From IMG/VR virus record IMGVR_UViG_644736362_000006: a stretch of DNA of 42,891 nucleotides; one strand, given 5' to 3'. The notes beneath the pieces are model-generated. The model was not told the DNA's origin. It saw only the letters and a program-made list of their open reading frames with translations, and made no database searches. The position numbers and the translations under genes were made by a program. Each line of letters begins with the position of its first letter. The first letter of the stretch is position 1. Below, in pieces: positions 37,442 through 38,011 of the stretch. Origin of the DNA: a virus. Its lineage: Duplodnaviria > Heunggongvirae > Uroviricota > Caudoviricetes.

Positions 37442-38011
37442 AAACGGGGGCGTGAAGCCATCCGGGCACTGGCCACACAGCTCCCGGCGTTTCGTCAGAA
37501 ACTGAGCGACGGCTGGTATCAGGTACGGATTGCCGGGCGGGACGTCAGCACGTCCGGGTTAACGGCGCAGTTACATGAGACTCTGCCTGATGGCGCTGTA
37601 ATTCATATTGTTCCCAGAGTCGCCGGGGCCAAGTCAGGTGGCGTATTCCAGATTGTCCTGGGGGCTGCCGCCATTGCCGGATCATTCTTTACCGCCGGAG
37701 CCACCCTTGCAGCATGGGGGGCAGCCATTGGGGCCGGTGGTATGACCGGCATCCTGTTTTCTCTCGGTGCCAGTATGGTGCTCGGTGGTGTGGCGCAGAT
37801 GCTGGCACCGAAAGCCAGAACTCCCCGTATACAGACAACGGATAACGGTAAGCAGAACACCTATTTCTCCTCACTGGATAACATGGTTGCCCAGGGCAAT
37901 GTTCTGCCTGTTCTGTACGGGGAAATGCGCGTGGGGTCACGCGTGGTTTCTCAGGAGATCAGCACGGCAGACGAAGGGGACGGTGGTCAGGTTGTGGTGA
38001 TTGGTCGCTGA
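37339..38011 (+). pseudogene. I: Lambda I tail tip assembly protein, disrupted by a +1 frameshift: 38 codons to a TGA at 37453-37455, remaining 185 codons continue in the +1 frame from 37454
   Basis: ATG at 37339 gives MAATHTLPLASPGMARICLYGDLQRFGRRIDLRVKTGA then stop; frame +1 continues EAIRALATQLPAFRQKLSDGWYQVRIAGRDV... to the track ORF ending 38011; 673 nt start to stop, not a multiple of 3. Confidence 0.85.

Follow-up and report, generated by a model that had tools for sequence, protein, structure and literature searches.

Gene I of bacteriophage lambda is annotated in J02459 / NC_001416 from the ATG at 14773 and encodes a tail tip protein, gpI, of 223 aa. The C-terminal part of gpI (residues about 134-223) forms a trimeric plug within the tail tip. 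A single-base change in a tail gene has been described for one laboratory lineage of the phage, the stf frameshift that distinguishes lambda PaPa from Ur-lambda (PMC10721106). Escherichia coli K-12 BW2952 is MC4100 malG::lambda-placMu55 (strain table, PMC3708739), and six sequencing-error positions in its genome were listed in Table S1 of Maharjan et al. 2013 (BMC Genomics 14:441; PMC3708739).

The stretch of DNA analyzed here (the window, 42,891 bases in total) was identical, base for base, to positions 4131538-4174428 of NC_012759.1, the BW2952 chromosome (CP001396). Its copy of gene I is interrupted as deposited. Once the G at window position 37452 was removed, the gene showed 100% nucleotide identity to J02459 14773-15444 and encoded the same protein, identical to gpI of the lambda tail-tip cryo-EM structures (PDB 8iyk_I and related entries). 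The Pfam domain of the repaired protein was also that of lambda gpI (Lambda_tail_I, PF06805, residues 14-97, E = 1.1e-28) and the gene order at the locus, L-K-I-J, was as in lambda. The sole difference from lambda gene I is this one base of the deposited BW2952 record. It is almost certainly a base-calling or assembly error; gene I is intact and nothing has been inactivated. The true DNA would read GGGGGCTGAAGCC, as in every other lambda, leaving gene I as an uninterrupted 223-codon ORF for normal gpI. Both ORF fragments would be by-products of the erroneous G, and so would the RefSeq protein of 183 aa predicted from an ATC start.

The element, lambda-placMu55 in malG, combines a Mu c end with a kan cassette and a lac fusion and is not an ordinary lambda prophage; the layout of the window agrees with the malG::lambda-placMu55 genotype. 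Coordinates are given in Table 1. The Mu A fragment is fused to lambda at 29985, within an ea22-like gene. The internal stop in Mu A may represent the A-amber allele known from the placMu5x series. The aph(3')-Ia cassette, with its PstI sites and dG/dC tails, sits at the lambda XhoI position (33498); its homopolymers are a G12 run at window 6323-6334 and a C10 run at window 7547-7556. At the other end stf is truncated by the lambda-lac junction (42565/42566), which leaves it about 116 codons and gives rise to a chimeric ORF of 139 aa (window 42217-42636) that runs into the lacA' region. This stf'-lac ORF was matched by the NCBI record alone, and short-read contigs of the lineage stop at window 42176, presumably owing to further copies of the stf N-terminal region in the K-12 genome.

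Table 1. Features of the window (position 1 is its first base)
Feature	Window position	Strand	Remarks
Mu c end	1-2798		repressor, ner, truncated A with internal stop
Mu repressor	1-591	minus	
Mu ner	761-988		
Truncated Mu transposase A	990-2807		internal stop flagged by PGAP
Lambda 29985-33502	2799-6316		
aph(3')-Ia kan cassette	6317-7562		PstI sites, G/C homopolymer tails; between hybrid XhoI/SalI-type joints
Lambda 33499-48502	7563-22566		
Lambda 1-19998	22567-42565		
Lambda gene K	36698-37441	plus	247 aa; Prok-JAB + NlpC/P60; 3' end overlaps start of I
Lambda gene I (tail tip protein gpI)	37339-38011	plus	673 nt in record; 672 nt / 223 codons without G 37452
38-codon 5' fragment of I, almost certainly artefactual	37339-37455	plus	ends at TGA 37453-37455
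183-aa 'tail assembly protein' WP_071819354.1 (PGAP), almost certainly artefactual	37460-38011	plus	ATC start in downstream frame
G, almost certainly spurious	37452	plus	NC_012759.1 position 4168989; without counterpart in J02459, PV340536 and both Logan assemblies
Lambda gene J	38072-41470	plus	lineage-private V466I
lacA'	42566 onward		

In the sequence as given, the frame opened by the ATG at 37339 closes at a TGA after 38 codons, as the first-pass annotation had described. The remainder of gpI (EAIRALATQLPAFRQ...GGQVVVIGR) is read in the +1 frame and runs to the stop codon at 38009-38011, and the span of 673 nt from start to stop was likewise confirmed in the record. The other lambda structural genes had been called intact. 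This was also the case: nu1 to lom are all open, and their products differ from those of J02459 at three residues (T S41N, H A434V and J V466I).

Alignment to reference lambda confirmed that the window has one extra base at the site that is missing from J02459. The T at 37453 had been proposed as this base, and that assignment has to be corrected. In base-level alignments with J02459 and with modern lambda (PV340536), the reference reads GGGGGC-TGAAGCC against GGGGGCGTGAAGCC in the window, so that G 37452 is the extra base; the read assemblies described below agree. The form with the G is GGGGGCGTGAAG. The gene I indel was the sole indel relative to modern lambda across 35 kb of the element (window 7563-42565). 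Two neighbouring bases were considered as candidates and rejected. Deletion of T 37453 would leave the protein unchanged (Ala codon GCG in place of GCT) at the cost of an extra substitution, and the read assemblies favour G 37452. Deletion of C 37451, as Table S1 of PMC3708739 would have it if taken literally, would give A39G and was ruled out by the read assemblies.

The extra G was peculiar to one record. A 61-mer at the site matched 3,676 E. coli records, with 100% identity in one of them, NC_012759.1. In IMG/VR the exact 32-mer with the G had 0 matches and the 31-mer without it had at least 120. None of the 241 phage records that matched a 1,501-base query did so at 100% identity; all the lambda-type records among those listed fell short of the query by one or two bases.

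Independent sequence of the same prophage was sought by its private substitutions, which served as a lineage tag: contigs were searched for that encode exactly its H protein and exactly its J protein. Five such substitutions are present, at window 32593, 32801, 34407, 35817 and 39467, all of them GC to AT transitions in tail genes. Those in G and M are synonymous, the others being the changes in T, H and J given above. They may derive from a mutagenised ancestor phage or from drift in the locked prophage. A search of 5,426 complete E. coli genomes found the segment at window 32500-35900, which contains four of the five, with 100% identity in BW2952 alone. Besides the NCBI record, the carriers of the exact H and J proteins were Logan read assemblies. 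Contig L135 (DRR002055; a contig present in at least 20 samples) was identical to window 35071-42176 except that G 37452 was missing. From ERR231645, contig L133 matched window 30610-36953 exactly, and contig L136 likewise lacked G 37452, with one further mismatch 5 nt from the contig end. Both L135 and L136 show GGGGGCTGAAGCC at the site and both encode the full gpI of 223 residues, so that independent sequence gives the continuous 223-codon ORF. Assignment of DRR002055 and ERR231645 to the BW2952 prophage lineage rests on the shared private substitutions; in the literature ERR231645 appears as an E. coli set of 51-nt reads, and a search gave no mention of DRR002055. All five substitutions are real, because they are common to independent read assemblies.

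The same conclusion had been reached for BW2952 itself. In Table S1 of PMC3708739 the entry at 4168988 reads 'C -> No C' and is placed in an intergenic position, 10 bp upstream of the I fragment BWG_3738, and the site was classed as a sequencing error after Solexa resequencing and PCR/Sanger sequencing of the strain. The list thus reports a 1-bp excess at the site found here, and a second of its errors, 4139083, likewise falls inside the window (7546). It differs in the base that is named. Window 37451 (C) corresponds to record position 4168988 and window 37452 (G) to 4168989, and both the alignment and the read assemblies give the G. As C 37451 is kept and G 37452 is missing in the read assemblies, Table S1 evidently names the base before the deletion; we infer that C 4168988 is the anchor base and that the adjacent G 4168989 is the superfluous one. 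The entry at 4139083 is also a deletion, and the base concerned is a T directly ahead of the C10 run of the kan cassette. In cassettes of the pUC4K type a C run, whose length varies, comes after TTT; this agrees with an anchor-base convention but is not decisive.

A related call was found in Additional file 2 of Maharjan et al. 2012 (PMC3446313), where '4168989 G Del G/*' is listed for resequenced descendants. The deletion is entered for 2 of 48 isolates, both on the separately formatted 'mutators' sheet; an error in the reference would predict it in all 48. The calling rule in that work was at least 80% of covering reads, and the low count is probably explained by filtering of shared calls or by threshold-dependent indel calling. 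It can also be read as a polymorphism, and with it the extra G as a genuine 1-bp insertion in the BW2952 clone sequenced in 2009, that is, a heterogeneous stock with one I-defective sub-lineage, the sporadic 'G deletion' calls of later isolates being a trace of this polymorphism. A Mu-mediated lambda-placMu55 in malG, locked in the chromosome, has no need to make tails and would no longer be selected for tail function, and the lineage did gain five real private GC to AT substitutions in tail genes. Such a subclonal insertion is nevertheless very improbable. BW2952 itself was rechecked by PCR/Sanger sequencing with the base classed as an error (PMC3708739), the G is missing from a contig common to at least 20 read sets and from a second read set, and it occurs in no other record of the collections searched. 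The distribution of the deletion in PMC3446313 also fits poorly: the deletion is not listed for BW3767, although that isolate has more mutations in common with 1Za40, and the two listed isolates are not each other's closest relatives, so inconsistent calling fits better than inheritance. The supplements of PMC4350175 contained none of the coordinates searched for, and a full-text literature search for '4168989' returned unrelated papers only.

Recurrent 'G/*' calls at 4137859/4137860, seen in several independent evolved populations, correspond to window 6322/6323. They fall in the G12 run of the kan cassette; the probable cause is therefore slippage or a homopolymer-length artefact and not adaptation.

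The lambda tail operon has a programmed frameshift elsewhere, at G-T. With this precedent the break in I could be imagined as real and bypassed by recoding, the ribosome shifting +1 at GCG-UGA to yield full-length gpI; as in prfB, the shift would take place at a stop codon. The break is, however, not conserved, all other lambda and lambdoid sequences examined keeping a continuous ORF. Neither a zero-frame X XXY YYZ heptamer nor anything like the CUU UGA of prfB occurs in ACG GGG GCG TGA A, and the G is missing from independent sequence of the lineage. Programmed frameshifting was excluded on these three grounds (no conservation, no slippery motif, a base that is not in the DNA), and we consider its probability negligible.

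An error in the record is what the evidence describes: the base was missing on independent sequencing, the variant was unique to one record, and its removal restored the canonical sequence. The remaining inconsistencies, namely the 2 of 48 listing and the provenance of the read sets, are outweighed by the Sanger confirmation of the original authors together with the sequence evidence. The first-pass annotation had offered a real inactivating mutation or a sequencing/assembly error as the two explanations; the PCR/Sanger list of PMC3708739 and the read assemblies without the base decide for the second. Its accompanying suggestion of a defective prophage falls with the first, as the lesion is not in the DNA of the organism (PMC3708739 Table S1; Logan assemblies). 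The gene I 'frameshift' differs in this from that of stf in lambda PaPa, which is real and reproducible and leaves the phage with no side tail fibres.

A true frameshift at codon 39 would break the protein inside its N-terminal domain, and the part of gpI that resides in the virion would be lost. The concern of the first-pass annotation was for this reason a fair one, though it does not apply to the actual DNA. Virion cryo-EM maps resolve gpI over residues 135-223 (or 134-222), and this portion is matched by an 89-aa ORF that opens at an internal ATG, window 37742 (gpI Met135), and extends over window 37742-38011. In virions the N-terminal Lambda_tail_I domain has not been observed, which may reflect processing (a JAB peptidase domain is present in K), internal initiation or disorder. 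Gene starts for I also differ between annotations, some recent annotations and gene callers giving a 190-aa product from a GTG at the overlap with the K stop. The start of the Pfam domain upstream of this GTG, at residue 14, argues against the 190-aa form; the annotated ATG and the in-frame ATG of Met14 both fit.

A comparable discrepancy was found in the neighbouring gene K, in the 1982 lambda reference (J02459 / NC_001416). There a single G is missing between 14266 and 14267, at a position corresponding to window 36832. It resembles the gene I error in that a single G is concerned, the context is GGC[G]T, and an annotated ORF of the tail-tip gene cluster is altered. The outlier is a different one in each case. 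For K it is the old reference, which lacks a G present in both the window and PV340536; for I it is BW2952, with a base that nobody else has. With the G, K encodes 247 aa, with the Prok-JAB domain complete (residues 3-104) and an NlpC/P60 domain at residues 111-224. In the J02459 annotation K has 199 aa and starts at 14276, inside the JAB domain.

Two further differences from the reference lie around cos. J02459 has an extra G at lambda 138 (window 22703), immediately right of cos, that is missing in both the window and PV340536; on this comparison it is probably an error or a private variant of the 1982 reference. The segment at window 21049-22619, which runs from lambda 46985 through cos to 53, has 30 substitutions relative to lambda in 1.6 kb and shows 99.9% identity to the ybcV-ybcW-ylcI region of the DLP12 cryptic prophage in K-12 chromosomes. 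The right end of the phage across cos has apparently been replaced through recombination with DLP12.

NC_012759.1 / CP001396 is uncorrected at the gene I site, and RefSeq still carries WP_071819354.1. Reads of BW2952 or of MC4100 derivatives that are mapped to NC_012759.1 give a recurrent false 1-bp deletion at 4168989, and this call has already entered one published supplement. Biologically the frame break is without significance, since the prophage has an intact gene I.
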